Positions 1,958 through 46,560 of a DNA stretch of 47,141 bases are shown here, in pieces. Position 1 is the first letter of the stretch; each line of letters starts with the position of its first letter. Below the pieces are notes generated by a model that did no database searches, was not told the DNA's origin, and worked only from the letters and a program-made list of their open reading frames with translations. Origin of the DNA: Synergistaceae bacterium (GTDB lineage: Bacteria > Synergistota > Synergistia > Synergistales > Synergistaceae); the NCBI GenBank assembly GCA_031290235.1, contig JAITNX010000100.1, positions 1 to 47,141 on the forward strand. The letters run 5' to 3'. Both the position numbers and the translations under genes were made by a program.

Positions 1958-3220
1958 ATGGATATAGGAAGCAAAGGCTACAAGGATCTTCTGGCAAGGC
2001 GTCCGCTCAACGTTCAGGTCCTTTATGGAAACGAACCCCTCGGATTGGTCAGCGGGCGCGATATAGCGACGTCCGCCAAGGAAACCGGGACGATAGTTTT
2101 GGCTGGCAACGCTCGCAACGCGCTGATCATCAAGGGGTTGCTCAAGGCGGCACACGAGCTGAATTCGTCGCTTTTGATCGAGCTGGCCAAGTCGGAGGAC
2201 TCATACTGCGGCACGACGTACGACAATGTAGCGGATTATGCCATGAAATACTCGGCCGAGCTTGGGCATGGGGTGATATTCGCCCTGCACGTCGATCACT
2301 ATGCCATAAAGGGCAAAGAGGACCTGATGAAGGGCGCGGGGCATTTGACTAAGATAATAACGAACGGATTCACGTCGGTGGCCATAGACGCGTCGCATCT
2401 CGATGACTACGCGAACCTTGCGGCGACCAGGGATCTTGGGACGTGGCTTCCATCGGCGATAGGGCTCGAGGCCGAGGTTGGCGAGATAAAAGGAGCCGGT
2501 GAGCTGACAACAGTGGAGGAGGCGCTCTACTTCATTGGCGGCTTGAACGCGTGGGGCGTATTCCCCGACTACCTGGCGATATCGAACGGCAGCCTGCACG
2601 GCACATACGACCCGGCGGCCGGAGTCATCGAGGGCATCGACCTCGTCCGCACGAAGGAAATTGCCGACGCGGTGGCGCCGTATGGGGTGTCGATAGCTCA
2701 ACACGGCATATCCGGCACTCCGTTTTCAAAGGTTTCCCAGTTCTCGAAGTTTGGAATCAACAAGGGCAACGTGGCGACGCTTTTCCAGAACGTGGTGTTC
2801 GGAATAAAGATGGACCCCGAGACCGGAAATGCCGTCACTGAGGGCGGGACCTATATAAAGGAGAGCGACCGGGGGATATCGGACAAGCTGTGGAACGAGT
2901 TGGTGCATGAGGCCGATTCGAAGGGGATTGGCCGCAAGAGCGGCGACTACAAGAAGCTGAATCTCCCGTTCCATGCCAAGATCCTTGCAGAGCCGGATCA
3001 CATAGTGGGCCGGATAGTGGACGAGGTTTCCGAGTGGGCGAAGCGCTTCATAAAGGCTTTTGGCGGAGAGGGCACAGCAGAGCACGTCCTCGAGGTCGTC
3101 TCCCGCAGGAGAGACCATAATTCTTCACCTGAGAGGGTCATCAGAAGCCCAAGGGCGAAGTATGGCCCAGCGGATGCGCCAAATCAGACCACGGGAAAAG
3201 GCGGAAATTTCGACGACTGA
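1958..3220 (+). CDS. fba: Class II (metal-dependent) fructose/ketose-bisphosphate aldolase family protein
   Basis: ORF 1898..3220. Motifs HVDH, AIDASH, GEIKG, SNGSLHGTY and AQHGISGTP correspond to class II aldolase metal and catalytic blocks. Start ATG 1958 lies directly behind AGGGAGGG. Confidence 0.75.
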   Translation: MDIGSKGYKDLLARRPLNVQVLYGNEPLGLVSGRDIATSAKETGTIVLAGNARNALIIKGLLKAAHELNSSLLIELAKSEDSYCGTTYDNVADYAMKYSAELGHGVIFALHVDHYAIKGKEDLMKGAGHLTKIITNGFTSVAIDASHLDDYANLAATRDLGTWLPSAIGLEAEVGEIKGAGELTTVEEALYFIGGLNAWGVFPDYLAISNGSLHGTYDPAAGVIEGIDLVRTKEIADAVAPYGVSIAQHGISGTPFSKVSQFSKFGINKGNVATLFQNVVFGIKMDPETGNAVTEGGTYIKESDRGISDKLWNELVHEADSKGIGRKSGDYKKLNLPFHAKILAEPDHIVGRIVDEVSEWAKRFIKAFGGEGTAEHVLEVVSRRRDHNSSPERVIRSPRAKYGPADAPNQTTGKGGNFDD

Positions 3221-3266
3221 GAGGATGCGGCTCTTATGGCATAACTTTGATTTAAAATTTGGCATA

Positions 3267-34375: not shown

Positions 34376-35308
34376 ATGATAGTGACGATAGGAACGTTTG
34401 ACGGTTTTCACCGGGGACACCAGACACTACTTCAACGTGCGTACACCAGGGCCATAGAGTCCGGGACCACCTGGGGGGTGATAACGTTCAGGATGATGAC
34501 TGGTTTTAAGGATTTCAAGTCCCTGTTCACTCAAAAAGAGCAGATGACGCTGGAAAAGTTCTTTGCTATCCCTGTCGTACACAGGATTGATTTTACGTAC
34601 GAGATATCGAATATGGCGCCCCCTGAGTTTCTCGATTTCATAGGCGAAAGTCTCGGGGTAACAGGCATAGTCATTGGCCGAGACTTCAAGTTTGGCAAGG
34701 ACAGGGCGGGCGATGCGTGGTTCTTGGAGTACGAGTGTCCTGTGCGCGGCTGGTCCATAGATACTCTGCCAGTGCTCAAGACCAACATCGGCATGCCGCT
34801 GGGCAGCACCGGAATTCGCTCCGCGGTAACGTACGGCCGGCTGGAGCACGTTGCGGAGCTTCTGGGTTATCCATACTTCTGCCAAGGCGTTGTAATCCAC
34901 GGGGACGATAGAGGTTCGACGCTAGGGTTCCCGACCGCGAACTTCGAAATCAGCAAAGAGAAGGTCGAAGTCAGGCGCGGGGTATACTCCACGCTTGTAT
35001 TTGTCGGCGGCAATTGGTATATAGGCGCCGCCAATATAGGAGTCAACCCAACTTTCCCGGGCTCGAGGAGTAAACACATCGAGGTAAACCTCTTGGGCTA
35101 CGAGGGACAATTGTATGGAGAGGAGCTGACCATATTCCTCCTTTCTCACATCAGAGATGAGATTCGTTTTGGAAACGTGGAAAAACTCAAAAATCAGGTA
35201 ACCCTGGATATTAGAAGGATCAGAGAAATAGCTGAGGAGTCCATGAAAAGTTACCCGGACTTCTGGCACAGGATGGGCTGCGCCATAGCCGCAGTCCCGC
35301 CCATATAA
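34376..35308 (+). CDS. ribF: Bifunctional riboflavin kinase / FMN adenylyltransferase
   Basis: GTFDGFHRGHQ (FAD synthetase) and LGFPTANF...GVY...NIGVNPTF (riboflavin kinase). Confidence 0.9.
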   Translation: MIVTIGTFDGFHRGHQTLLQRAYTRAIESGTTWGVITFRMMTGFKDFKSLFTQKEQMTLEKFFAIPVVHRIDFTYEISNMAPPEFLDFIGESLGVTGIVIGRDFKFGKDRAGDAWFLEYECPVRGWSIDTLPVLKTNIGMPLGSTGIRSAVTYGRLEHVAELLGYPYFCQGVVIHGDDRGSTLGFPTANFEISKEKVEVRRGVYSTLVFVGGNWYIGAANIGVNPTFPGSRSKHIEVNLLGYEGQLYGEELTIFLLSHIRDEIRFGNVEKLKNQVTLDIRRIREIAEESMKSYPDFWHRMGCAIAAVPPI

Positions 35309-35334
35309 GCCAGTCTGGCTGGCTGGCGTTTTTT
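35309..35334 (+). terminator. Rho-independent terminator ending the rimP...ribF operon
   Basis: GCCAG-N9-CTGGC followed by GTTTTTT. Confidence 0.65.
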
Positions 35335-35434
35335 ATAAGATAACCGGAATGATATCAAATTAAGAAGCCGCGCTCTATCAAATCGTTCAATTGCAAGCGG
35401 CGGCCCTCAGGGTAAATGAGGACCGCCGCTTACT

Positions 35435-35680
35435 TCAATCTAAATAGTCTCCGGTATCGTAGCTGTTGATCTGTTTTTTTACCTTGATGATAATGGAGCC
35501 GTCATCCTTGGTCTTCTCGTCTACGATAATATACTTTGTGCGGTTGCGCTCAAGGAGCTGCTTATAGCTCTCAAACTCCTCCTTTACCATGCGAACAGCC
35601 AAAGCGTGAGCAATATTTTCCTTCAATTGGAAATGAATAGTCTGTCTGAGGCATGCTGATTGAATGCGTCTCACTCTCAT
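35435..35680 (-). CDS. Small hypothetical protein, paralog 1 (81 aa) in AT-rich islet
   Basis: MRVRRIQSACLRQTIHF...IIIKVKKQINSYDTGDYLD. It shares its N-terminal (RI-SACL-QTI-F) and C-terminal (Y----GDY-D) blocks with the neighbouring ORF. A strong hairpin lies at 35395..35431, just past the stop. Confidence 0.55.
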   Translation of the reverse strand: MRVRRIQSACLRQTIHFQLKENIAHALAVRMVKEEFESYKQLLERNRTKYIIVDEKTKDDGSIIIKVKKQINSYDTGDYLD

Positions 35681-35710
35681 TACCTGCCTTTGTTTTTTTG
35701 AGGTTAATTG

Positions 35711-35911
35711 TTAATCAAAATAATCTCCTATGGGATGTCTGTTGTAATCCCTGATAAGTTTTACCATGACCGAATTATCAGGCTGGCTTTTCGCTCCGAC
35801 AACCTTGTGTTTGACGCCTTTTCGATTGAGATTGGCGATAAAGGCCTGATGCTCCTCTTCCGATTCAAACTTGATGGTTTGTTCCAAGCATGCGCTGAGA
35901 ATGCGTTTCAT
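35711..35911 (-). CDS. Small hypothetical protein, paralog 2 (66 aa) in AT-rich islet
   Basis: MKRILSACLEQTIKFESEEEH...VMVKLIRDYNRHPIGDYFD. ATG 35911 lies behind GGGGGAGGTG. The ORF-track start at 35947 is an extension. Confidence 0.55.
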   Translation of the reverse strand: MKRILSACLEQTIKFESEEEHQAFIANLNRKGVKHKVVGAKSQPDNSVMVKLIRDYNRHPIGDYFD

Positions 35912-36255
35912 TTTTTTCACCTCCCCCTGACAACACATCTGCCGCATAAAACTGTATTGTCAAAATTGGTATCAATTATTCATATTTGGGATATCTATCC
36001 CAAACTAGTCAATATAGGATTATGTTTACTATATGAATAGTAACATTATCCTCACGTAAATTCAAGTAATCTATGCGGAGAATAATTAAAAATATCGGCA
36101 TTTAATGGATTATAATGAATATAACCACATAGTAAGTTGAATATTTCGAATTATATTTATTTGATTTACTTTGTAATGTTTAAATCGTGAACGCGGCTGG
36201 AATTATCGATGTCGATGCACAAAAAACATATAGACAACAAAAAGGATTGGCTAAG

Positions 36256-36498
36256 TCACTCTCCATTTTCCTCTCCGTCCAGATCCTCCAGGTCCTTCAT
36301 ATAGCTTTTCCATAATTTAATAGCGATTGCCGCCAGCGCGGAGCCGGCAAAAAATCCGAGCGCGGCGGTCACAGGGCGTCCCTTGCCGGCAAGGTAGCCT
36401 CCGACGCCGCCGATCAAGTACCCGTAACAGATGACTGTTCCAACGGAACAGAACAGCGTCGCCAGCCTTTTAATTGTCGCTCTGGTCTCAAGTTTCAT
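36256..36498 (-). CDS. Small membrane protein (two TM, glycine-zipper-like; acidic tail)
   Basis: MKLETRATIKRLATLFCSVGTVICYGYLIGGVGGYLAG...GFFAGSALAAIAIKLW...DLEDLDGEENGE. ATG 36498 with GAGG 6 nt upstream. Confidence 0.5.
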   Translation of the reverse strand: MKLETRATIKRLATLFCSVGTVICYGYLIGGVGGYLAGKGRPVTAALGFFAGSALAAIAIKLWKSYMKDLEDLDGEENGE

Positions 36499-36546
36499 GT
36501 ACCGCCTCAATCTCACTTCAAGGTCCGTTTCGGAACCTTCAATAAT

Positions 36547-36712
36547 AAAAAACCGATCCCCCGGCAGGAGGCCCAGCTTGCCACGGCGCTCGAAGAGCTT
36601 TGCTTACCGTTGCTTCCTTCCGGACCTGGCGGGATTCACAATTCTTCGCCGCATGGGACTGGGCCTCCTGCGGAGGAGCGATTCATTTCGCCGGCTGAAT
36701 ACCGGCGAACTT
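36547..36712 (-). ncRNA. ffs: Signal recognition particle RNA (4.5S/SRP_bact type, ~165 nt with an extra 5' hairpin)
   Basis: The minus strand contains CCCGCCAGGTCCGGAAGGAAGCAACGGTAAG. Its CAGGTCCGGAAGGAAGCA core matches the E. coli 4.5S domain IV/GGAA tetraloop region as I remember it. It is closed by a 12-bp helix CAGGAGGCCCAG/CTGGGCCTCCTG and ends in a T-run (36552-36547). Boundaries are approximate. Confidence 0.85.
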
Positions 36713-36716
36713 TGCA

Positions 36717-36745
36717 ATCATAACATGCCGTGACTTCGATGACAA
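36717..36745 (-). promoter_or_regulatory. Promoter of SRP RNA
   Basis: Minus strand reads TTGTCA (36745-40), 17 nt, TATGAT (36722-17). Confidence 0.6.
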
Positions 36746-36799
36746 GATCCCGCGCGCTTAAAACCCCTTATGAGGAGCGTGTGGATTTACTTTGTTTCG

Positions 36800-39700
36800 T
36801 TAGTGCCCGGCCTTGGTCCGGCTCAGCTTTTTCTCTGTCCAGTGCCGTAGTGTGCGGTACAGCTCTTCGGGATCTATCGGTTTCGTTATGTGGTCGTTCA
36901 TGCCGGCGTTCACGCTTTTTTCGTAGTCGCCCTTCATTGCGTGAGCGGTCATCGCTATGACGGGCAATTGGTCCTTGGTTATTCCCAAGACGCCCCGAAT
37001 CCTCCGCGTTGCCTCCAGCCCGTCCATTATCGGCATTTGCACGTCCATGAAAACCAGGTCGTAACTGGACTCCTTGAGCATCTCGATGGCGTCCGCCCCA
37101 TTTGGCGCTACCTCAACTGCGGCGCCGAACTGTGTCAGCATCTCCACCGCTATCTCCTGGTTTATCTCGTTATCCTCGACCAGGAGAACGCGCGATTCGA
37201 CCTTGGGATGTGTCTCGTCCTCGGTTTGGGTCCCGGCGTCATGCTTCTTCAGGGCGAGGTTCTTCTCCTCGTAGTCGGCGATCACTCCAAGTTTTATTGT
37301 GAACTTGAATGTGCTGCCTTCGCCATAAACGCTCTCGGCCCAGATCGAGCCGTTCATGCTCTCCACGAGGTGCTTGCTTATGGAGAGGCCGAGGCCGCTG
37401 CCGCCGTATTTCCTCGTTATAGAGCCGTCCGCCTGGGTAAATGGCTTGAACAGCTTTTTCAGCTGCTCCTCCGTCATGCCTATCCCGCTGTCTTTGACCG
37501 CGAAACTGAGTTCATCGACTGGCATGTCCTCGTTCATCTCGTCGGTATGAGTTGACGATACCAGGAGGGTTATTTTTCCTCGCTCCGTGAATTTGACAGA
37601 GTTGTTGCACAGGTTCACAAGAACCTGGTTCAACCTCAATGGGTCGCCCATGAAGGCCTTCGGTACGTAGTCCGGAATGTTCATCTCGAAGGAGACCCCC
37701 TTCTCCTCCGCCTTGAACGCGACGAGGTCCCAGAGGCTCTTCATTATCTCCCTCAGCCTGAACGGAGAGTTGTCCAGCGTGAATTTTCCGGACTCTATCT
37801 TCGAGAAATCAAGTATGTCGTTTATTATTGACAGCAGGGCGCTGGCGGCGTTTTTTATCTTGACGAGGTAGTTCTTCTGCTTCTCGTTGGGGTCCGTCTG
37901 CAGGCAGAGGTGGGTCATGCCGATTATGGCGTTCATCGGAGTGCGAATTTCGTGGCTCATGCTGGCGAGGAAGTCGCTCTTCGCCCTCGCGGCATCCTCG
38001 GCCATTATCTTGGCCTGGGTGAGTTCTGTCACGTCTGAGATCCATGACAGTATAGACGGCTTGCCATTGTAGACGAACGGGTGCAGCGTCATGAGCGTGT
38101 CCAGCGTTTCGCCGTCCGGGCTGTAAAGCTTGATGGGCCAGTTCCTGATCGAATTTCCCAAGCCGGCGGCGGATATAATCTCCCTTTGCTGTTCCTTTTC
38201 CACGTACAGGCTGTCTACCGAGTCTCCGTTGTGGATCCCAAGCGTCGCGGTGCCGTAATCGTTCACGTTTACCACGACGCCGCCGTGAACTATGGCCATT
38301 ATAGTTGGACTCGAGTCCAGTATCTCCTGCAGGTTCTCCTTTTGCTGCGTCAGATAGCGCTCTGCCTTCTTCTGATCGCTGAGGTTATGAATGGAAGCGA
38401 TGCTGACTCTCTGCTGGTTGACCCTGACGAACGTCCAGGTCACGAGGCATGGTATCTCCTGCCCCTCCGAGTCGATGTACGTCCATTCGAAGCGCGTCTG
38501 GTCGCTCTCTAGCAGAGTCCTCGACTTCAGCTCGAATTCATCTTTTGATGCGCGGCCGTTGTCCTGGAACCGCGGCGAGAAGCTCATGAAGTTCTCCAGT
38601 ATCCGCTGCTTGCCATGTGCCTTGAAGAGCTTTATCACAGCGACGTTGCAGTCGATCGGGACAAATTCATCGGAGAAGAATATGTAACCCTCCTCCGTGT
38701 TGTCATATAATGCCTGCATCATCATGCTCGACCTGGTCGCCTCCGTGAGGTCGATGACGGCTATGATCGCTCCGGTCTTCACCCCGTACTTGACCACCGG
38801 GGAGACCGATATCTCGACTGGGATGAAATTGCCGCTTTTGTCCAGGATCCAGAGGCCGTGCAAGCTCTCCTTCTTGTCGCTGCCTGTGGCGGATCGCAGC
38901 CCGCACTTCTCGTCCAAACAGACCGCGCCCTCTGAGCGGGCGTGGCTGACGACGGAGAAGAAGTCGTGTCCCAGAAGCTCGTCTTCGCCGTAGCCCAGCA
39001 TCGATAGAGCTGTCGAGTTTGCGAATGTCACTAAGTTCTCCTTGTCCAGCTCGATGATCGCCTCCGTCGTCAGGTTGAGTATGAGGCGGGTATGCTTCTG
39101 CGCCTCCTCCAGTTCCATCGTGCGCTCCAGGACGATCATCTCGAGCTGTGAATTTTGCATGAAGAGTTCGTCGCTGGCCTCGGTCGCCCTCTGTTCGAGG
39201 ATCTTGGCGTTGCCGAGGGTCGTTTTCAAATTGTCCACCATGACGTTGATGGCTCTGAATAGCCTGCCCAGCTCGTCAGGGTTTTTATCGTCAAGCTGAT
39301 CCGAAATGTCGCCGGCGGCTATGGACTCGGCATACGATACCCCTGCCTCCAGCCTTGGTATGATCGATCTGACGAAGCGTTTGGACGCTGTTATCGCGAT
39401 GGCGAAGACCAGCATGTAGATTCCAAGGCTGATGTTGCGGAATATGATGAGGGGCCTGTAGATATGAGCGTTCTCCGCGTAGGAGACCAGGTGCCATTTT
39501 ACGCGCGACAAGCCGGAGAAAAAAACGGTCCCGTCGTCCAAGGACAGATTGCCGTTCTGATCGCGCATGATCCCGGATACCGCGGTGTCGATGTTGAAAT
39601 AGACGTCATCCGGTCCGGTCTCGATCATGACGTTCCCATTCTCGCCGAGAAGGAACAGGCGGTTCCTGTCGTCGAAATTGTACCTGGCCCTTATTTCGTC

Positions 39701-40267
39701 CCTTAAAAATCCCCGGACGTCCACTCCTATCAGCACAACGCCAATCATGCCTCCATCTCTCGCTTTTTGCACAGGAGCGGCGATCGTATATACCTTGTCC
39801 GGCTCTCCAAAACTGTCCTGGGTAAGGGCTGTGACGAGGTATCCGGATAACGCGGTCCTGAAAAAGTCGTCGCCGGATATGTTCCCGGCGGCCCCGGCTG
39901 TCGAAATCAGAATGTTTCCCGACGCGTCGGCTATGGTTATGTCTGCCGTGACTGGCAGCGCGTTCTGTATGGACCTCAGGGAACGCCTGATCCTGAGGAG
40001 AGAATCCTCCTTGTCATTCCCGTCTGAGGCCGCGGTGACGTAGTTCACGGCCTCTTCGCTCGATCCGAGGGACTCGGCGGCATGTTGCATGGCGATTATC
40101 TTGTTGTCCATGTCGTTCTTTATCTCTCTGACTGTCATCTCCTCTCTGTCGTTCAGTGTCTTCACTATTTCTTTTCTAAAGATTGTGTAATTCAAGATCG
40201 CGGTTGAGAATACACCAAGGAGTATGCTTAAAATAATCACCATATAAAGCCTAGTTCTGATTTGCAT
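36800..40267 (-). CDS. Hybrid sensor histidine kinase/response regulator (TM-dCache-TM-HAMP-PASx3-HisKA-HATPase-REC)
   Basis: N-terminal TM plus a periplasmic Cache-like region of about 250 aa, then a second TM and HAMP. Repeated PAS-like segments follow. H-box SHEIRTPMNAI, G-boxes DSGIGM and GGSGLGLSI. Receiver LLVEDNEINQ...DLVFMDVQMPIMDG...KP. Confidence 0.9.
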   Translation of the reverse strand: MQIRTRLYMVIILSILLGVFSTAILNYTIFRKEIVKTLNDREEMTVREIKNDMDNKIIAMQHAAESLGSSEEAVNYVTAASDGNDKEDSLLRIRRSLRSIQNALPVTADITIADASGNILISTAGAAGNISGDDFFRTALSGYLVTALTQDSFGEPDKVYTIAAPVQKARDGGMIGVVLIGVDVRGFLRDEIRARYNFDDRNRLFLLGENGNVMIETGPDDVYFNIDTAVSGIMRDQNGNLSLDDGTVFFSGLSRVKWHLVSYAENAHIYRPLIIFRNISLGIYMLVFAIAITASKRFVRSIIPRLEAGVSYAESIAAGDISDQLDDKNPDELGRLFRAINVMVDNLKTTLGNAKILEQRATEASDELFMQNSQLEMIVLERTMELEEAQKHTRLILNLTTEAIIELDKENLVTFANSTALSMLGYGEDELLGHDFFSVVSHARSEGAVCLDEKCGLRSATGSDKKESLHGLWILDKSGNFIPVEISVSPVVKYGVKTGAIIAVIDLTEATRSSMMMQALYDNTEEGYIFFSDEFVPIDCNVAVIKLFKAHGKQRILENFMSFSPRFQDNGRASKDEFELKSRTLLESDQTRFEWTYIDSEGQEIPCLVTWTFVRVNQQRVSIASIHNLSDQKKAERYLTQQKENLQEILDSSPTIMAIVHGGVVVNVNDYGTATLGIHNGDSVDSLYVEKEQQREIISAAGLGNSIRNWPIKLYSPDGETLDTLMTLHPFVYNGKPSILSWISDVTELTQAKIMAEDAARAKSDFLASMSHEIRTPMNAIIGMTHLCLQTDPNEKQKNYLVKIKNAASALLSIINDILDFSKIESGKFTLDNSPFRLREIMKSLWDLVAFKAEEKGVSFEMNIPDYVPKAFMGDPLRLNQVLVNLCNNSVKFTERGKITLLVSSTHTDEMNEDMPVDELSFAVKDSGIGMTEEQLKKLFKPFTQADGSITRKYGGSGLGLSISKHLVESMNGSIWAESVYGEGSTFKFTIKLGVIADYEEKNLALKKHDAGTQTEDETHPKVESRVLLVEDNEINQEIAVEMLTQFGAAVEVAPNGADAIEMLKESSYDLVFMDVQMPIMDGLEATRRIRGVLGITKDQLPVIAMTAHAMKGDYEKSVNAGMNDHITKPIDPEELYRTLRHWTEKKLSRTKAGH

Positions 40268-40415
40268 CTATAAACATCTCCATCGCAATGTTTATTTCAG
40301 TTCCATCTCTAGCTTTCTCATATCTTTGCGTATCAATAGTAACACAACAAGGGCTGAAACATGGAGAAAGGGAGCGTGATTTTTGCTCATGCCAAGCCGC
40401 GCTCAAACGTTTATT

Positions 40416-40450
40416 TTTGGTTTGCCTGAACTATTGTATAGCTTGGTTTT
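40416..40450 (+). repeat. 35-bp direct repeat, left copy (flanks twin toxin-like cassette)
   Basis: tttggtttgcctgaactattgtatagcttggtttt compared with 41493..41527 tttgatttgcctgaactattgtatagcttggtttt. Same orientation, 1 mismatch. Confidence 0.8.
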
Positions 40451-40575
40451 ATGCTTTACCCTTCAGACCTTTGATTTCCCGAGTTTAACAGTTAAGGAGA
40501 TCAAAAAATCCCATAGAATATTGCAGTTAAGGATTGCGCGTCTTGTTGATCGTTTTTTGCTGTAAAACTCGGGAT

Positions 40576-40604
40576 TTGAAATCCACGGATGGGAGTGTTA
40601 TAAT
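40576..40604 (+). promoter_or_regulatory. Consensus-like promoter for antisense RNA A (convergent with toxin-like mRNA A)
   Basis: TTGAAA (40576-81), exactly 17 nt, TATAAT (40599-604). The predicted TSS near 40611 reads into the 3' UTR of module A. Confidence 0.65.
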
Positions 40605-40614
40605 CTGCCTCAGT

Positions 40615-40647
40615 AAGAAGCCCGCCGGAGAGCGAGCGGGGCTTCTT
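40615..40647 (-). terminator. GC-rich 3' hairpin of toxin-like mRNA A
   Basis: AAGAAGCCCGC - 10-nt loop - GCGGG(G)CTTCTT. The tail is U-rich but there is no clean U-run. Confidence 0.45.
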
Positions 40648-40716
40648 GAGTTGCTTGGCTGATTTGGCCGAGTGGAGGACACTCAGCCAATGTGACAGAA
40701 TCAGCCAAGTGCGACG

Positions 40717-40830
40717 CTAGACGAACAGGCGGATTAATTCCGTCAACGCTTGAAGGAACCATGCGACGGTTCCGAAAAGCGAAGAAAGGGCGAGCCAGAG
40801 TAAAATCTGTTCGCTCTTTTCTTTTTTCAT
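40717..40830 (-). CDS. Candidate type I toxin-like hydrophobic peptide A (37 aa)
   Basis: Not in the ORF track (<60 aa). atg aaa aaa gaa aag ... gtc tag translates to MKKEKSEQILLWLALSSLFGTVAWFLQALTELIRLFV. The SD GGGAGG lies 9 nt upstream and pairs with CCUCC (hairpin 40840..40855). A same-length paralogous frame exists in module B. Confidence 0.55.
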   Translation of the reverse strand: MKKEKSEQILLWLALSSLFGTVAWFLQALTELIRLFV

Positions 40831-40911
40831 CTAAGGCCACCTCCCTTCGTGGAGGTTTCCCCAATTGCCAAATAGCACCACGGAAAAGATGTCCGTGTCT
40901 CTCCGCGTTGG

Positions 40912-40920
40912 ATTTTAACA
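40912..40920 (-). promoter_or_regulatory. Extended -10 promoter (TGtTAAAAT) of toxin-like mRNA A
   Basis: Minus strand reads TGTTAAAAT. The equivalent TGATAAAAT sits at the same position in module B. Conservation between the copies begins here. Confidence 0.5.
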
Positions 40921-41051
40921 TGTCGTTTTATAACGCATGTACACCTCGCAACGCTACTTAAATTTTCCTATTTGAAGTATCGAAATGATACTCCAAGTGC
41001 AGGACATTGTCACGATATCTAGTTGACAAAAAACACAGGAATTAACACGTG

Positions 41052-41060
41052 TGATAAAAT
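41052..41060 (+). promoter_or_regulatory. Extended -10 promoter (TGaTAAAAT) of toxin-like mRNA B
   Basis: TGATAAAAT at 41052-41060. TTGACA lies further upstream (41022-27) at non-canonical spacing. Confidence 0.5.
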
Positions 41061-41142
41061 CCAATACGGAGAGACACGGACATCTTTTCCGTGGTGCTGA
41101 ACTTTGACAAAGCGGGAACTCCCACGAAGGGAGGTGACCGAG

Positions 41143-41256
41143 ATGAAGGGAAAGGAAAAGAGCCAGCTCATTATCTGACTGACTCTTTCCATACTTCTTG
41201 GGGCCACCACACGGCTCCTTGAAGCTTTGACGGATTTAATCCGTCTCCTGATTTAA
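41143..41256 (+). pseudogene. Paralog B of the toxin-like peptide ORF, interrupted by in-frame TGA at codon 12 (41176-78)
   Basis: MKGKEKSQLII*LTLSILLGATTRLLEALTDLIRLLI*. It has the same 38-codon length as A. The TGA aligns with TGG (Trp12) of A. SD GGGAGG is sequestered in the hairpin CTCCC-acgaa-GGGAG (41119..41133). Confidence 0.5.
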
Positions 41257-41324
41257 GGTCCCACTTAGCTGATGCTGATCTTGGCTGAGTGTCCCACCAC
41301 TCGGCCAAATCAGCCAAGCAATTC

Positions 41325-41357
41325 AAGAAGTCCCGCTCGCTCTCCGGCGGGCTTCTT
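41325..41357 (+). terminator. GC-rich 3' hairpin of toxin-like mRNA B
   Basis: AAGAAG(T)CCCGC - 10-nt loop - GCGGGCTTCTT followed by tct. Confidence 0.45.
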
Positions 41358-41367
41358 TCTGAGGAAA

Positions 41368-41396
41368 ATTATAACACTCCCATCCGTGGATTTCAA
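41368..41396 (-). promoter_or_regulatory. Consensus-like promoter for antisense RNA B
   Basis: Minus strand reads TTGAAA (41396-91), 17 nt, TATAAT (41373-68). It is identical to the module A promoter over 37 nt. Confidence 0.65.
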
Positions 41397-41492
41397 ATCC
41401 CGAGTCCCGAGTTTAACAGCAAAAAACGATCAACAAGACGCGCAATCCTTGCAAATACTGAGAATTACGAGTGTGGCACGCAGAATGAAAAC

Positions 41493-41527
41493 TTTGATTT
41501 GCCTGAACTATTGTATAGCTTGGTTTT
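41493..41527 (+). repeat. 35-bp direct repeat, right copy
   Basis: See 40416..40450. Confidence 0.8.
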
Positions 41528-41739
41528 TACGCAAGGCGGAGGCGGCGTGGGCAGAGTACGTAAAAATATAAAAAATTTCTGAGACTAAGAGTATGCCAAA
41601 CGCCCGCCTGTGTTATACTATGTACGCGCTTTGAAGGATGTTGAGGCGGCATGGAGCGCTCGTCGGCAGGAACGGAAAGTTTCAGCGGTGTGTTTTATGA
41701 ATTTTTTGCGATTTGTGTGAGTTTTATATGTCTGTTTTA

Positions 41740-41769
41740 TTGACAAGATGGCTCGATTCGTGGTTATAT
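41740..41769 (+). promoter_or_regulatory. Candidate promoter of pilMNOPQ
   Basis: TTGACA (41740-45), 18 nt, TTATAT (41764-69), about 70 nt upstream of pilM. Confidence 0.45.
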
Positions 41770-41839
41770 CAACTCTGGCAATCCGCTATATGTTGGATAG
41801 ATGGGCCAAGGTCCTAAGCAACGCAAAGGAGGCGCCTTT

Positions 41840-42802
41840 ATGGGATTATTCAGCAAGAAGGATGGAGGGTCTAGGGCGGGACTTTTTATCTTTGGAGGAG
41901 TCATGCAGTATGTAGTGATTTCAAAAATAGATGAAAGATCGTTTCGCCTGGAGGAGTGCATTGACGCGCCTTATGATGCCAGTTCGAGCGGCGGAGAGCT
42001 TTTTTCGAATCCCGAGAGAATCAAGGAGAATTTAAGGGCACTCAAGAAGCTCGTCGGCAGGAAGTGGGCGGATAAGGTTTATGCCGGCATCCAGTCTAAG
42101 GATGTTCTGATACGCACCGTGGAACTTCCTCAGATGGAGCTGTCCGATATAAGGGACGCGTTCAGATACGAGTTCGATAGGTTTTTCCCCATACCTGTCG
42201 ACGAAGCGGTTTACGACATAACGTTCATAGATAGGCCGGGCAGGGACGATGCCACACAGGGGGCCATAGTGAACTGTATCGCCTCGGCTGTTCGCAGCGT
42301 CACGGTCGAGAACCTGATGACGGCCTGTCAGGACGTCGGCGTAAAACTGAGCGGGATAGAGCCATCCCCCGTCTCCTTGCTGCGCTGTTTGATGGGTCCC
42401 GAGGTTCCGTCTGGGTTCAATCTCTATGCGCTCGCCGGAATTGCCAGCAGCATCATAATAGCGACCTACAAGGACAATGGGATAGTCTACAGAAATACGT
42501 CCCAGTCCTTTGCGGTGGACGACCCGTCGAACAAGACCATAGGGAACTTCACAAGGGACCTTCAGGCGACTGTGAACTTCGCTTCCACTCAGATCAGGGG
42601 ATTCGCCGCCGATAAGGTATATATAGGCGGTTATGGCGCCAGGCATTCTGAGGAGATAATGTCCAGCGTCGCCGAGGTCGTTACGGCGCCCATAATGATT
42701 GTGAATCCATGGGAGGCCTGGGGAATATTCGGCCAGCCGCCGCAGGCGTTTGGCTGGGAAATAGCGCTTGGCCTGGCACTCAGGCCTACGGAGGTGAGGT
42801 AA
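41840..42802 (+). CDS. pilM: Type IV pilus assembly protein PilM (actin-like ATPase fold)
   Basis: VYAGIQSKDVLIRTVELPQMELSDIRDAFRYEFDRFFPIPVDEAVYD is a typical PilM block. ATG 41840 lies behind AAAGGAGG. Confidence 0.8.
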   Translation: MGLFSKKDGGSRAGLFIFGGVMQYVVISKIDERSFRLEECIDAPYDASSSGGELFSNPERIKENLRALKKLVGRKWADKVYAGIQSKDVLIRTVELPQMELSDIRDAFRYEFDRFFPIPVDEAVYDITFIDRPGRDDATQGAIVNCIASAVRSVTVENLMTACQDVGVKLSGIEPSPVSLLRCLMGPEVPSGFNLYALAGIASSIIIATYKDNGIVYRNTSQSFAVDDPSNKTIGNFTRDLQATVNFASTQIRGFAADKVYIGGYGARHSEEIMSSVAEVVTAPIMIVNPWEAWGIFGQPPQAFGWEIALGLALRPTEVR

Positions 42803-42805
42803 AGT

Positions 42806-43486
42806 ATGCGTGTTCTTTTTGATTTAAGGCCTCCACACCTAGTTCAGGTTCAGGATCAGCGCGTGGATGCGCTGAGGTTATTCAGCGTCCTGCTATTTGC
42901 AGTTTTTTGCGTTTTGTCAGTTTTTAACATTATATATACCACCATCAGGCTGAGGGAAGTCAGGACAAATCTCGTTGCCTCCAGGAACGAGGAGCGCACG
43001 CACAACGACAACGTCGCGCGCCTGGCTGAGAGCATAGAGCAAATGAGGGCGATGAAGGACGCCACGAAACTTTACCTGGCTTTCTCCAGGGAGGAACTGC
43101 CCACGGTCGAATTCATGGCCGCCCTCGAGGGCGCGGTTACTCCTGGTTTGAAGGTGGCGACCCTCGACATCCGCCCAGGGAATGTCGCTATGACAGGATC
43201 GGCTCTCACTGAACAGGATGTAATAGAGTTTGGCGGGAAGCTGGGCGGCATGAAGAATATCGTGGCAGGAGTCAATGCCCCTGTGACCACCAGAGGCGCG
43301 ATAGGGGAGACCTCCATATCTAACTACTCCATATCCTGCACCATAAAATCAATCTCCGACATAGCGAACGCTTATTCCGAGCCGCTGCCGGATCTCCCTC
43401 CGCAAGCAGAGGAAGCGCCGCCAGAGGGACCTCCTGAAGTGGTTCCTGATTCCAGCGACGAAGAAGGGGGGGAGATTGCCCAATGA
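42806..43486 (+). CDS. pilN: PilN-like pilus assembly protein (single TM, coiled coil; Pro/Glu-rich tail)
   Basis: Its position after pilM, an N-terminal TM (LFSVLLFAVFCVLSVFNIIY) and a coiled-coil segment. C-terminal PPQAEEAPPEGPPEVVPDSSDEEGGE. Confidence 0.65.
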   Translation: MRVLFDLRPPHLVQVQDQRVDALRLFSVLLFAVFCVLSVFNIIYTTIRLREVRTNLVASRNEERTHNDNVARLAESIEQMRAMKDATKLYLAFSREELPTVEFMAALEGAVTPGLKVATLDIRPGNVAMTGSALTEQDVIEFGGKLGGMKNIVAGVNAPVTTRGAIGETSISNYSISCTIKSISDIANAYSEPLPDLPPQAEEAPPEGPPEVVPDSSDEEGGEIAQ

Positions 43487-43998
43487 AGACGCCAAGGCAG
43501 CAAGGATTGTTCGTAGTACTCATTGGGGTCACAGCCTTGCTTTTGGTGGTGGCTCAGTTTATGATCCAATCTCTCTACAGAAGCGCGAGCGTCGAGCTGG
43601 CATCCGCTCAGGGCAATGTGAAGTCGCTCAGAAACATGGTCAGTGTCAGGTCGGGGTTGATGGATAGGTACAAGCAGTTCGAGACGACTGTCGGTCCTAT
43701 CACCACCACAGAAAGGACATACCCTGAGACCCCTCTTGAGTTCTACGAGCTCCTGAGCATGGCTCTGAAGGACAATGGGGTGGATCACAACAACCTGACT
43801 ACCAGTACCGGGAGCGCTCCTGGTTCGGTTCTCCAGTTTCAAATAGCGTTCACTGGTCCGTACTATGGGCTGATCAAGGCGATTGCGTCTATCAGGGCGG
43901 GCCGCTTTATAACGAGGATCTCCGAGTTTCGGATAAGCGCTCAGGAGAATGGCCAGGTCTCAGGCACTATGACAGTCCTGAGTACGGCCAGGAGCTAG
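43483..43998 (+). CDS. pilO: PilO-like pilus assembly protein
   Basis: ATGA overlap with pilN. TM (LFVVLIGVTALLLVVAQF) plus coiled coil. Size and position fit PilO. Confidence 0.55.
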   Translation: MKTPRQQGLFVVLIGVTALLLVVAQFMIQSLYRSASVELASAQGNVKSLRNMVSVRSGLMDRYKQFETTVGPITTTERTYPETPLEFYELLSMALKDNGVDHNNLTTSTGSAPGSVLQFQIAFTGPYYGLIKAIASIRAGRFITRISEFRISAQENGQVSGTMTVLSTARS

Positions 43999-44011
43999 GG
44001 GGAGACGCTCG

Positions 44012-44632
44012 ATGGCAGATATCCTAAAATCTTCGGGCTCATCTGGAGCAGCATTGACCAGAAAAGGGGCTCAGAAGTCAAGTGAAAAGAGGCTTAAGCA
44101 GGTTCTGCTCGTAGTAGTCCTTTTTGCGTGCTGCGCAGTCAGCGTCTATTTTTTAAGGAGTACGATGATGACGCAGTCAGCGCCTGGTCAAGACTTGAGC
44201 GCGGAGGCGGCGCTTCAGGCGCTGCAAGCCGAGATTGACAATGAAATAGTGGATATAGGTGAAACAGAGAGTGATGTGACGGGTATCAGCAGGGCTTCTA
44301 CAATGGTGATGCAGACCGCGCTTCTGGCGGAGGTGTCGGGGAGATATCCGGTGGCCCCCGCGTCTGTCCTGGCTCCGCCTCCCCCGCCGACTTCGATCAG
44401 CCTTCCATCGGTTGAGGTCATAGAGCCGGATCCGCCGGAGGTCACAGTCATAGCGATCATGATAACGGACAGCGACAAGGTTGCTATGGTGGATGTACTG
44501 GGCGAAGTAGGCGGTCTCATAGTTAGGCAGGGCAGTTCTTTTGCAGGAGGCACGGCAAAAGTTACAAAAATTGACGCGAAGGGTGTGACATTTATATGGA
44601 TGAAAAAAAGTTATACGATAACAGTGCAGTGA
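44012..44632 (+). CDS. pilP: PilP-like pilus assembly protein
   Basis: TM anchor, a Pro-rich linker and a C-terminal beta domain (VAMVDVLGEVGGLIVRQGSSFAGGTAKVTKIDAKGVTF). It lies immediately upstream of the secretin. Confidence 0.5.
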   Translation: MADILKSSGSSGAALTRKGAQKSSEKRLKQVLLVVVLFACCAVSVYFLRSTMMTQSAPGQDLSAEAALQALQAEIDNEIVDIGETESDVTGISRASTMVMQTALLAEVSGRYPVAPASVLAPPPPPTSISLPSVEVIEPDPPEVTVIAIMITDSDKVAMVDVLGEVGGLIVRQGSSFAGGTAKVTKIDAKGVTFIWMKKSYTITVQ

Positions 44633-46560
44633 TGGAAGGCTGGCGGAGGAAAACGGCTGTCTTGCCGAGGCGTCTTCTGCCGCTGTTCATCCTGTGTCTC
44701 GCGCTTTTCGTATGCGCTTCGGCAGCTCTTGCCGGCGACAGCGACCCGTTCCGCGTGACGAGTCCGCGGACTCTTGAACCCAAGTACCAGAGGAAAGGCG
44801 ACATAGAGCCGTACTTGACCATGGACACTCCCATCGGCCCTGTCCTCGCCGGCATTCAAGTCCATCAGATGGGCGGAGACGGGATACTTCTCAAGGTGAG
44901 GGGTTTTAATATTCCAATTCCACGCGCCGTCACCTCGCCGGGCGAGAACAAGCTGGTGCTTCAGTGGGACGAAGCGAGGTTCCCCCAGAACACTGACAAG
45001 CGCGATTGGTGGGACGACTACGACTGGGATATACTGAAATTCCCGGTGAACAAGAGCAAGTCGGACTGGTGGAAACAGTATGACTATCCCCTGCTCAACA
45101 GGATAGACGTGGCCGCCTTCGACCAGAAGAGCATGAGGATGACCTTCACGTCCACGCAGCCGCTGGTACTTGAGAGGATAGATGGCATAGCGGGCGCGGA
45201 CAACATTAGCGTGCTGCTGAAGGCCTATTCCGAGCCTAAAGCCCCGAAGCCGGAGAAGGTTGTGACCTACCAGAAGGGCGACCCAATGGCCATTACCGCG
45301 CCGGTCACGCTTCAATTGAGGGACGCGGAGGTAAAGTCCGTTTTCAGGATGCTGACGGATATGCAGAAGCTGAACCTCGTTATAGATCAGTCGGTGCCGG
45401 ATACGGTCGTCACTTTTTCCTTCACCAATGTGCCGTATAAAGATGTCTTTGGCTACCTCCTCAGGGTGACTGATTTGAGCTATGCGGTTTTGAACGGAAC
45501 ACTGGTGGTTGGCACGAGGGAGAGCCTTGCGCATACTCTCGGCACGGAAATCCTGCGGGAGTACAAGCTCTCGTATGCGCTGACGCCGGCAAACGGAGAG
45601 GTCAGGGGAGATCTGGTTTCCGCGCTGACGGCACTGGTGCCGCTTTCCAAAGCTCCGACACTGGACCAGCGCAACCGTACGCTGTACGTGACGGCTTCCC
45701 CCGAACAGCATGAAGAGGTGGCGGAGATGCTGGAGCGTCTGGACCAGCCTGGCAGACAGGTCATGATCCAGGCAAAGATTGTCGAGGTCAACTCTAACGC
45801 GGCTCAAGATCTGGAGTCCCTGATCTCGGGCGTATACGACCAGTGGCTGATGAATACGGCCGGAGGACGCCTCAACTTGGGGTATAACTATGCCACCCAA
45901 GCCTTTGAAGGGGCTGATCTCGGCATCCCGATCGCCGGCACGCCGCAGGGAAGCACCACGGTGTGGGATAATGTCGTGATGGATGGCGGCAATAAGCTGC
46001 TGTCGGCGGGTCTCACGGCTCTCGAAAGCAGCGGCAAGGGCAAAGTCCTTGCCCACCCGTCGGTAGTGACGCTCGATGGCCATGAGGCGACTGTAGCGCT
46101 GACTCAGAACGCGTTGTACGCGTCCGGCGTCGACTCGAATGGAAACACGACGTTCTCCAGTGTCGAGAGCGGTCCAAGGATAAACTTTACGCCAGTGATA
46201 GGCAGGAACGGTATCATCACCATCGACATATCGATACAGACAGGCGATATAGTCGCTTACAGATCGACAGGGAATGGCGCGCAGACGCCAGAGACAACCA
46301 CCAGGTCGGTACAGACTATGGTCAGAGTGCGCAACGGAGAGCCCTTCGCCGTAGGCGGCCTCTATCAGGAGACCAAGACAAATACCCGTGAAAGAATACC
46401 GGTCTTGGGTTATATACCTTTCCTTGGCGATCTCTTCACCACCAAGACCGACAAGCATGTAAAGTCCGAGGTCGCTATGATTGTGGTGCCCTACATCTTG
46501 GATGTCCCGGACGAGGAGATATCGACCCGCGATCTGATGAGGTCGTCGCTGAACCAGTAG
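44596..46560 (+). CDS. pilQ: Type IV pilus secretin PilQ
   Basis: Signal peptide LFILCLALFVCASAALA and AMIN-like N-terminal repeats. Secretin blocks VMIQAKIVEVN, GKGKVLAHPSVVTLDGHEA and RIPVLGYIPFLGDLF. An alternative coupled start is ATG 44632. Confidence 0.88.
   Translation: MDEKKLYDNSAVMEGWRRKTAVLPRRLLPLFILCLALFVCASAALAGDSDPFRVTSPRTLEPKYQRKGDIEPYLTMDTPIGPVLAGIQVHQMGGDGILLKVRGFNIPIPRAVTSPGENKLVLQWDEARFPQNTDKRDWWDDYDWDILKFPVNKSKSDWWKQYDYPLLNRIDVAAFDQKSMRMTFTSTQPLVLERIDGIAGADNISVLLKAYSEPKAPKPEKVVTYQKGDPMAITAPVTLQLRDAEVKSVFRMLTDMQKLNLVIDQSVPDTVVTFSFTNVPYKDVFGYLLRVTDLSYAVLNGTLVVGTRESLAHTLGTEILREYKLSYALTPANGEVRGDLVSALTALVPLSKAPTLDQRNRTLYVTASPEQHEEVAEMLERLDQPGRQVMIQAKIVEVNSNAAQDLESLISGVYDQWLMNTAGGRLNLGYNYATQAFEGADLGIPIAGTPQGSTTVWDNVVMDGGNKLLSAGLTALESSGKGKVLAHPSVVTLDGHEATVALTQNALYASGVDSNGNTTFSSVESGPRINFTPVIGRNGIITIDISIQTGDIVAYRSTGNGAQTPETTTRSVQTMVRVRNGEPFAVGGLYQETKTNTRERIPVLGYIPFLGDLFTTKTDKHVKSEVAMIVVPYILDVPDEEISTRDLMRSSLNQ

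Follow-up and report, generated by a model that had tools for sequence, protein, structure and literature searches.

Two inverted copies of a probable type I toxin-antitoxin-like module in the genome of a Synergistaceae bacterium

The type I toxin-antitoxin loci txpA/RatA and bsrG/SR4 of Bacillus subtilis, with bsrE/SR5 and yonT/SR6, combine a short structured mRNA, a Shine-Dalgarno (SD) sequence occluded by mRNA structure, a small single-helix peptide, and an antisense RNA that converges from the 3' side over the 3' end of the mRNA and the open reading frame (ORF); they are often prophage-borne and present in multiple copies. A 3'-convergent antisense RNA overlapping the mRNA 3' end is the layout of Gram-positive type I families (PMC8594479). 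Type I systems are hard to find because their tiny toxins and their RNAs both go unannotated; the database T1TAdb comprises 24 families from 218 species, with Synergistetes absent from its paper (PMC8594479), and we found no literature report of type I systems in Synergistetes. Here, we analyze a 47,141-nucleotide contig of a Synergistaceae bacterium (JAITNX010000100.1, assembly GCA_031290235.1; the whole stretch is called the window), in which a locus at positions 40529-41450 belongs to a sequence family whose predicted organization resembles the Bacillus loci in each of these respects.

The locus consists of two copies of a ~395-nt unit that are inverted relative to each other. Copy A (40529-40920, minus strand) is intact, and copy B (41052-41450, plus strand) keeps the frame and length of A but carries TGA at codon 12. 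We consider it probable that these are two inverted copies of an unannotated type I toxin-antitoxin-like module of gut-dwelling Synergistaceae and their prophages; the best reading of the predicted layout places it closest to the 3'-convergent txpA/RatA and bsrG/SR4, as a new family unrelated to them in sequence. Copy A would be the live module, and copy B could donate antitoxin RNA in trans. From a start ~7 nt past a TGnTATAAT box, where the mRNA terminator tails off, the antisense RNA would run back through the 3' untranslated region (UTR) and probably the whole ORF and end at a hairpin followed by a U-tract, for a length of ~230 nt. Its duplex with the mRNA would block peptide production, either by RNase III-type cleavage, by holding the mRNA in a closed fold, or both, and the peptide, once made, would damage the membrane.

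The module differs from the Bacillus loci in several ways. No similarity in peptide or RNA sequence is found, it occurs in the phylum Synergistota, its peptide has a lower hydrophobicity and bears a conserved R-E-D-R stripe, and its antisense RNA appears to span the ORF from end to end, with termination opposite the start codon. The SD sequence is also sequestered in hok/Sok of plasmid R1 and aapA1/IsoA1 of Helicobacter pylori, and a 10-bp complementarity between the 5' and 3' parts of the predicted mRNA recalls the long-range 5'-3' pairing by which full-length hok and aapA1 mRNAs are kept inactive. The antisense RNAs of those two systems, however, lie within the 5' part of the mRNA, whereas here the promoter is on the 3' side, and there is no sequence homology (no Pfam match). 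As predicted, the module shares with par (fst/RNAII) of the Enterococcus faecalis plasmid pAD1 convergent transcription, a small helical toxin peptide, and a GC terminator hairpin between both promoters, here equally stable on both strands. In par, direct repeats mediate pairing of the antitoxin with the 5' region of the toxin mRNA (PMC8594479). The 5' UTR motifs GGAGAG and GCUAUUUGGC of our family agree in sense with the predicted antisense RNA and are not complementary to it, so that, unlike in par, the antisense RNA cannot pair with them and any interaction would have to take place through the overlapping 3' UTR and ORF. TisB and DinQ, SOS-induced in Escherichia coli, are likewise short amphipathic helices with few charged residues on one face, and '...ALLELIRFLL...' of DinQ resembles '...ALTELIRLFV' of peptide A, a lead rather than a test. 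Our peptide gives no significant profile match, and LexA-type control is not evident here; the TisB and DinQ antitoxin RNAs are transcribed divergently from upstream genes and have no overlap with the toxin mRNA (PMC8594479).

An earlier note on this DNA, made from its letters, had described two inverted ~395-nt copies around a ~130-bp center, in a stretch with no credible long ORF. Both points hold. The repeat search gives inverted arms of 112 nt (95% complementary), 46 nt (98%), 47 nt (94%), and 26 nt (85%), pairwise alignment agrees, and the arms enclose a unique center of 131 nt (40921..41051) between the divergent sense promoters that is devoid of family conservation upstream of the -10 boxes; the ORF list holds no credible long ORF between 40267 and 41801. 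Two core motifs of 24 nt and 31 nt occur twice each within the 47-kb window versus zero expected, and nhmmer with a hidden Markov model of the module family finds these two copies only, with no third in the window.

The module has relatives. A 21-nt motif from the 3' hairpin matched two Synergistaceae metagenome-assembled genomes (MAGs) in a species-representative genome collection, and a 19-nt motif gave 28 matches in metagenome contigs, 10 of them with a module; the remaining 18 were chance matches in unrelated coding sequence and were discarded. Twelve nucleotide-level copies came from this 19-21-nt motif, and nhmmer confirms the matches. Scanning with peptide A in HMMER returned four related small proteins, a profile of 13 peptides extended these to 59 clusters, and further modules came from contigs fetched for selected peptides and from one viral-contig scan. 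The family thus recovered has a unit of ~320 nt and comprises 16 modules of full length, a further 8 that are truncated or divergent, and the 59 peptide clusters. We aligned the 16 full-length main-type modules (A4) and sets of 13 (A3) and 43 peptides (A5). Neither blastn searches of plasmid and phage collections with copy A nor a DNA-motif scan of viral contigs gave a match, and a homology search with the 37-residue peptide, padded, returned only the window's own peptide.

Conservation in the family is bounded by two facing promoters. On the sense side it starts exactly at an extended -10 box, TGnTAAAAT in 12/16 modules, with variants at the same place in L002 (TAGTACAAT), L031 (TGGTAGAAT), L032 (TGATATACT), and L037 (TGCTATAAT); upstream of the box the loci have no sequence in common, and in several of them a neighbor's terminator sits there. 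By sequence reading, the window boxes lie where they had been reported, TGTTAAAAT at 40912..40920 (minus strand) in copy A, which has no clear -35 element, and TGATAAAAT at 41052..41060 (plus strand) in copy B. Downstream, conservation ends at ATTATAnCA, the complement of TGnTATAAT. This type of box is present in 22/24 copies, including the divergent L038 and L039 and the deletion variants L035 and L036, it belongs to the only conserved opposite-strand promoter, located at the module 3' end, and in nine copies a TTGAAA -35 box precedes it with a 16-17-nt spacer. The promoter scan recovers the opposite-strand TTGAAA-17-TATAAT promoter of the earlier note in both window copies, with 11/12 consensus positions plus the TG extension: TTGAAA-17-TGTTATAAT lies at 40576..40604 (plus strand) in copy A, directed into its 3' UTR and ORF, and at 41368..41396 (minus strand) in copy B, where it is intact though the toxin ORF is dead. 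The conservation of the box in 22/24 copies and the end of conservation at this point are strong comparative evidence for a convergent promoter predicted to face each module, and any transcript from it would be perfectly complementary to the mRNA.

The architecture extends beyond the main-type modules. Each computational test capable of refuting the type I architecture proposed in the earlier note supported it instead. The antisense promoter, SD hairpin, and structured 3' UTR are conserved across the family and even in a UTR-divergent branch (L038, 1-480; L039, 120-600), where the UTR sequence is unrelated and the order of ORF, long hairpin, terminator, and ATTATAnCA box is the same. An orphan main-type long hairpin and a second promoter box follow the L038 module directly (~391-470). 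Both 3' hairpins are missing from L035 (6090-6140) and L036 (6100-6135), and the antisense -10 box lies directly 3' of the ORF; L035 has also lost its stop codon, which extends the ORF to 69 residues. These two loci represent either independent deletions or a short-form architecture.

The ORF itself may hold the end of the antisense transcript, which we infer to run for ~230 nt through the 3' UTR and whole ORF to a point opposite the start codon. In 14/15 modules the antisense version of a hairpin over codons ~6-18 is the more stable one (mean difference 3.5 kcal/mol), a sense A-C mismatch corresponds to an antisense G-U pair in 10/12 main-group sequences, and past the hairpin the antisense strand reads into a U/C-rich run that is the complement of Lys/Glu codons. 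The candidate terminator of antisense RNA A (40781..40828, plus strand; RNAfold -20.7 kcal/mol) consists of a hairpin that faces codons ~2-17 and, after it, UCUUUUCUUUUUUCAU, complementary to the Lys/Glu codons. Its counterpart in copy B (41143..41193, minus strand; RNAfold -18.6 kcal/mol) is a hairpin followed by CUUUUCCUUUCCCUUCAU, and the terminator scan flags this N-terminal-codon site in copy B (41180-41161).

The predicted mRNA is densely structured. The 5' UTR of copy A (40831..40906, minus strand) opens with the conserved GGAGAGAC and contains the P1 hairpin CACGGA/TCCGTG (40879-40897), the GCUAUUUGGC motif, and an anti-SD CCUCC (40851-40855) paired to the SD GGGAGG (40840-45). The 5' UTR of copy B (41061..41142, plus strand) has P1 at 41075-41093, anti-SD CUCCC at 41119-41123, and SD GGGAGG at 41129-41134, and its UUUGGC motif has decayed to UUUGAC. 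Both hairpins had been described from the sequence, including the upstream partner of the SD (CCTCC in A, CTCCC in B), as had the two-tier 3' hairpin and the GC hairpin, which are present in each copy. The two-tier long hairpin of the 3' UTR spans 40654..40709 (minus strand) in copy A, supported by family alignment and strand asymmetry, and 41264..41318 (plus strand) in copy B, supported by repeat search, folding, and alignment. The GC hairpin, detected by the terminator scan, spans 40615..40647 (minus strand) in A, where its pyrimidine/U-rich tail makes it the predicted intrinsic terminator of the mRNA, and 41325..41357 (plus strand) in B; its loop CGCUCUC is invariant in the 16 aligned modules.

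Folding of the predicted transcripts, which the earlier note had proposed as a check, gives mRNAs far more stable than shuffled sequences (z = -6.4 for A and -5.8 for B). In partition-function folds the SD has a probability of being unpaired of at most 0.10 in 15/15 predicted mRNAs, with the anti-SD as partner; the value is 0.01 in copy A, where the partners are the anti-SD columns, and 0.10 in copy B. On A4, the named local structure (P1, anti-SD/SD helix, lower and upper stems of the long hairpin, terminator) has 90.5% of cells paired versus 31.6-50.7% when the partners are slid, seven pairs are changed on both sides, and its covariation score is reached by 0/500 shuffles. P1 is 97.8% paired and shows compensatory changes in 4/6 pairs, with variants such as CACGGA/TCCGTG, CGCGGA/TCCGCG, CGCAGGA/TCCUGCG, and others. 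The anti-SD/SD helix is 90.8% paired over 16 sequences, and its changes are one-sided only (G-U/G-C, A-U/G-U), none two-sided. The lower and upper stems of the long hairpin are 88.8% and 99.4% paired over 16 modules, with compensatory changes in L037 from A-U to G-C and from U-A to C-G. The G-U versus C-A asymmetry that had been noticed at one helix position is present and extends across the family: P1 is more stable on the sense strand in 12/15 modules, the SD helix in 14/15, and the long hairpin in 14/16, where sense wobble pairs would be antisense mismatches. This strand asymmetry places the UTR hairpins on the mRNA.

There may also be a second fold. RNAalifold on 16 sequences pairs GCUR-UUUGGC of the 5' UTR with GCCAAAUCAGC of the 3' arm over 10 bp, a pairing kept in 158/160 cells (98.8%), with two covarying pairs (A-U/G-U/G-C, and G-C to A-U in L031 and L037); the three sequences that vary may represent one evolutionary event. 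In single-sequence ensembles, however, the local 3' hairpin wins over this pairing (P ~1 in 13/15 modules), and the modeled 5'-3' fold is therefore put forward as a possibility. Two further pairings were set aside: that of 5' GGAGAG with the terminator-loop CUCUCC is too weak, since beside its invariant core one flanking position is paired in just 11/16 sequences, and that of the 5' end with the terminator U-tract was returned by RNAalifold on 11 sequences and not on 16.

Such a structured, multi-copy element (z ~ -6) could be a non-coding RNA, or a repeat resembling miniature inverted-repeat transposable elements (MITEs) or repetitive extragenic palindromic (REP) sequences, whose palindromic UTRs are selected and whose ORF is incidental. 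The 3' hairpins alone are kept in L001, in L014, and in the second hairpin of L038, and the UTRs of the two window copies are more alike than their ORFs. The ORF, however, behaves as a gene. ORF A (40717..40830, minus strand), found in the ORF list as the earlier note had quoted it, has 37 codons plus stop and encodes the candidate toxin MKKEKSEQILLWLALSSLFGTVAWFLQALTELIRLFV, with homologues P0002 and P0003 at 75% and 73% identity. Peptides in the family have 37-42 residues. The earlier note had stated that a frame broken in homologues that keep the RNA structure would point to a non-coding element; we find the frame open in 13/15 modules that keep SD and ATG, the exceptions being copy B and the shorter L003b, while the other two sense frames are open in 0/15 and 3/15. 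Indels in the ORF are multiples of three (+3 nt in L021, -21 nt in L003b), the pairwise ratio of nonsynonymous to synonymous substitution rates (dN/dS) is 0.09-0.91 and below 1 in 45/45 pairs, and extra states by codon position number 37/15/42, with position 2 least variable. The SD and ATG stand at a fixed spacing across the family. These comparisons indicate that the reading frame is under purifying selection. The 59 clusters share the motif LLEALADxxRLL, the loci have no common terminal inverted repeats or target duplications, and the boundaries of conservation are the promoters. An RNA element with an incidental ORF is thus highly improbable in our judgment.

The broken copies point the same way. 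Five of the 13 motif-found copies, a sample not selected for an intact ORF, carry independent ORF-killing lesions: a nonsense codon in copy B, a 7-codon (21-nt) deletion in L003b, loss of SD and ATG in L025, loss of the 5' half in L014, and retention of the last codons only in L001. Because these lesions are different and independent, they speak for gene decay and not for a non-coding element. The antisense TATAAT box is kept in 13/13 of the same copies. The claim of a 38-codon ORF in each copy therefore stands for A and fails for B: the pseudogene ORF B (41143..41256, plus strand; MKGKEKSQLII*LTLSILLGATTRLLEALTDLIRLLI) keeps frame and length and has TGA at codon 12 (41176-41178), a TGG codon in copy A and in nearly all relatives. 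Since this nonsense codon falls on the conserved Trp12, copy B is a pseudogene of the candidate toxin; reading of TGA as Trp was ruled out, the window's long ORFs being intact under genetic code 11. Decay and genomic context together are more in keeping with a toxin module, selfish or defensive, than with a small protein of housekeeping function, which is a better fit and not proof.

The peptide consensus is M-x-x-K-x-K-S-Q-L-I-x-W-L-A-L-x-x-L-L-G-A-x-A-R-L-L-E-A-L-A-D-x-I-R-L-L. Residues M1, W12, L13, L15, L18, L26, and R34 are invariant in the 13 sequences of A3, and in the 43 of A5 Trp12 is at least 90% conserved and Arg34 invariant. A Lys/Glu-rich N-terminus is followed by a hydrophobic stretch and then by an amphipathic stretch with an R-E-D-R polar stripe. 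AlphaFold2, given the family alignment, models a single continuous helix over residues 4-36 (mean predicted local distance difference test score, pLDDT, 86), on which T16, T23, R24, E27, D31, and R34 fall within a ~100-degree sector of the helical wheel. With a best 19-residue Kyte-Doolittle window of 1.6-1.7, borderline for a transmembrane segment, the model suggests an amphipathic, borderline-transmembrane helix.

These properties would also suit a small membrane protein, or an oligomeric one, that is not toxic, such as a regulator of a transporter or of the envelope, whose expression is adjusted by a cis-antisense RNA together with a 5' UTR that occludes the SD, and which has no role in addiction or defense; we judge this unlikely. 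The hydrophobicity of the peptide is moderate and its charged stripe conserved, many copies sit in ordinary chromosomal intergenic regions, and in a profile search of the PDB the C-terminal half weakly resembles designed coiled-coil and helical-assembly peptides (3j89, 6wl1, CC-Hex; E 0.012-1). The PDB matches, which include short transmembrane-segment likeness to CyoC besides the designed helical peptides, are compositional and were not taken as homology. Yet the family is multi-copy and patchy, copies occur in prophage and toxin-antitoxin contexts, ORF knock-outs are frequent and independent with the antisense promoter retained, and control is tight at two levels, by an SD paired with P of at least 0.9 and by a predicted convergent antisense RNA. 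A benign role is disfavored because multi-copy patchiness, such contexts, knock-outs, and tight control are hallmarks of toxic genes.

Several points weigh against a toxin-antitoxin module nonetheless. The toxicity of the peptide and the existence of both transcripts are predictions from sequence, as is the 3' end of the antisense RNA, and the sense promoters have no recognizable -35 box. On the hydrophobicity scale the peptide scores 1.6-1.7, below the 2.2-2.6 of four classical type I toxins, and the four charged residues in the C-terminal half of the helix make a benign small membrane or oligomeric protein possible. Frequent loss of the ORF could also reflect a peptide that is not toxic and can simply be done without. 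Relatedness among the 16 aligned sequences inflates the covariation statistics, and since the 3' arm of the long hairpin was the search pattern, its invariance is in part an effect of ascertainment.

The genomic settings of the copies resemble those of toxin-antitoxin loci. There are twin or tandem copies (the window, L003, and L038, the last with orphan hairpin-promoter units), one copy in a phage head cluster (L041), copies with phage- or plasmid-type neighbors (L037, L039, L040), and one in a hicAB cluster (L033); other copies lie in ordinary chromosomal intergenic regions. The L041 contig (IMG/VR UViG_3300006226_000195) carries a complete module at 2900-3230 inside the head-gene cluster of a predicted phage, between a Mu F-like head-morphogenesis gene and the genes for DUF2213, cement, and major capsid proteins, where it looks like a phage accessory ('moron') gene. 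The L037 copy stands beside GP7, holin, and integrase genes, ~3.4 kb from the genes for a peptidoglycan-binding protein and a holin, the L039 copy adjoins Phage_tail_X, and the L040 copy is near ParB and helix-turn-helix genes. The family member in L033 (1448-1591), located between a hicB-like gene and a hicA-hicB pair, is an ORF-only remnant without 5' UTR, SD, or 3' UTR and with an altered C-terminus.

These neighborhoods raise the alternative that the peptide is a phage-derived 'moron', holin/antiholin-like or acting in superinfection exclusion, which spread to chromosomes and whose antisense RNA silences it during lysogeny. Besides L041, L037, and L039, this explanation draws on weak matches of 4/13 members to Phage_holin_Dp1, below threshold (best E = 0.019, at 13.5 bits versus a cut-off of 25). 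The matches are far under threshold, so that the Dp-1-type holin profile gives no significant hit, and they cover the hydrophobic stretch only; L041 lies among head genes and L039 by a tail gene rather than next to an endolysin, yet L037 is ~3.4 kb from a holin gene, and the window copies have no recognizable prophage around them. We regard a phage origin of this kind as quite improbable. It overlaps with the type I assignment, since several known type I loci are prophage-borne, for example in the skin and SPbeta elements of B. subtilis.

Database searches agree with the suggestion of an undescribed family. At gathering threshold, Rfam finds only a signal recognition particle (SRP) RNA elsewhere in the window, and a relaxed scan of 40250-41850 (E <= 10) gives chance microRNA and leader matches only and no antitoxin family. 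Pfam and NCBIfam contain no matching toxin family at E up to 10, homology to Fst or Ldr was not found, and PADLOC and PHROGs have no match to the module family. The 59 peptide clusters, which answer the earlier suggestion to look for conservation of the ORF in related genomes, are named 'hypothetical protein' where they are named at all, none has a Pfam domain, and the only organism name attached to them is 'Synergistaceae bacterium'. If the type I assignment is right, a sequence-novel family would be added in an under-studied, mostly uncultured gut phylum, and it could be annotated by the signature WLAL..LLG...LLEALAD..RLL with two facing extended -10 boxes. The module would be a compact model for RNA and protein constraints on one stretch of DNA, for the persistence of orphan antitoxin copies, and for the travel of modules on prophages; the amphipathic R-E-D-R helix is of possible interest for studies of membrane-active peptides.

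The two window copies differ in their nearest relatives along their length. Their UTR core blocks are 94-98% identical and each other's nearest relatives, whereas the ORF segments are only ~62% identical, ORF A being nearest to L031 and L032 (85-86% at the nucleotide level) and ORF B to L002 and L021 (76%). Gene conversion between the inverted copies could have homogenized the UTRs, or the ORF segment could have been swapped in. Since copy B has kept an identical antisense promoter and a 95% identical 3' UTR, it may supply extra antitoxin RNA in trans; such an RNA would pair almost perfectly with the 3' UTR of copy A. These elements can be joined in one scheme, which we put forward tentatively and hold to be doubtful as a whole. 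The antitoxin RNA would span the whole toxin ORF, with its terminator U-tract being the complement of the N-terminal Lys/Glu codons, so that one DNA segment serves as codons and as terminator. The toxin mRNA would switch between the local 3' hairpin and a 5'-3' pairing of the hok/AapA type, and copies with a dead toxin, such as B, would be kept as antitoxin donors in trans, their UTRs matched to those of the live copy by gene conversion.

The inverted duplication reaches 46 nt past the family-conserved module. The outer arm on the A side (40529..40574) lies upstream of antisense promoter A and is 98% complementary to its partner on the B side (41405..41450; repeat pair I2), and this arm is absent from all fetched loci, that is, not conserved outside the window. 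A 35-nt direct repeat (34/35 identical; 40416-40450 and 41493-41527) flanks the whole twin locus, 79 nt and 43 nt beyond the ends of the inverted repeat, and likewise has no counterpart in any other locus fetched. The twin locus may have arisen by a duplication or insertion of which this repeat is a relic; an attachment site or a target duplication was also considered. The sequence TTTGATTTCCCGAGTTTAACAG at 40470-40491 is a partial third copy of the outer end of the module (antisense -35 region), inverted relative to 40560-40581, with which it could form a 22-nt stem across 68 nt. In copy B, the heptamer TCCCGAG is duplicated (41399-41412).

Exact-match look-ups of window proteins found none on record, and the best named relatives of the window RibF are from Synergistaceae MAGs at no more than 56% identity, from which we assign the window to an uncultured member of this group. 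Downstream of the locus, positions 41801-46560 hold a type IV pilus or secretion-like cluster with PilM-like and PilN-like ORFs, two further ORFs, and a secretin; the module remnant of L001 lies directly 3' of a prepilin-like gene, and the pilus-type neighbors of both may reflect a shared neighborhood in related genomes. On the other side, a gene-poor region of low GC content (44-48%) at 35300-36800 contains, on the minus strand, tandem paralogous small ORFs of 81 residues (35435-35680) and 78 residues (35711-35947), a Gly-rich, membrane-like ORF of 86 residues (36256-36516), and the SRP RNA (36567-36665; Rfam 67 bits). Finally, L031 has a second SD-preceded small ORF (1406-1582) ~320 nt upstream of its module, which encodes 58 residues (VKKKRPPQKSRKKTPILTKVKRLLPVGYWVLSFLKFLLAVFSYL) with a very basic N-terminus and a hydrophobic C-terminus and may be another toxin-like small gene.

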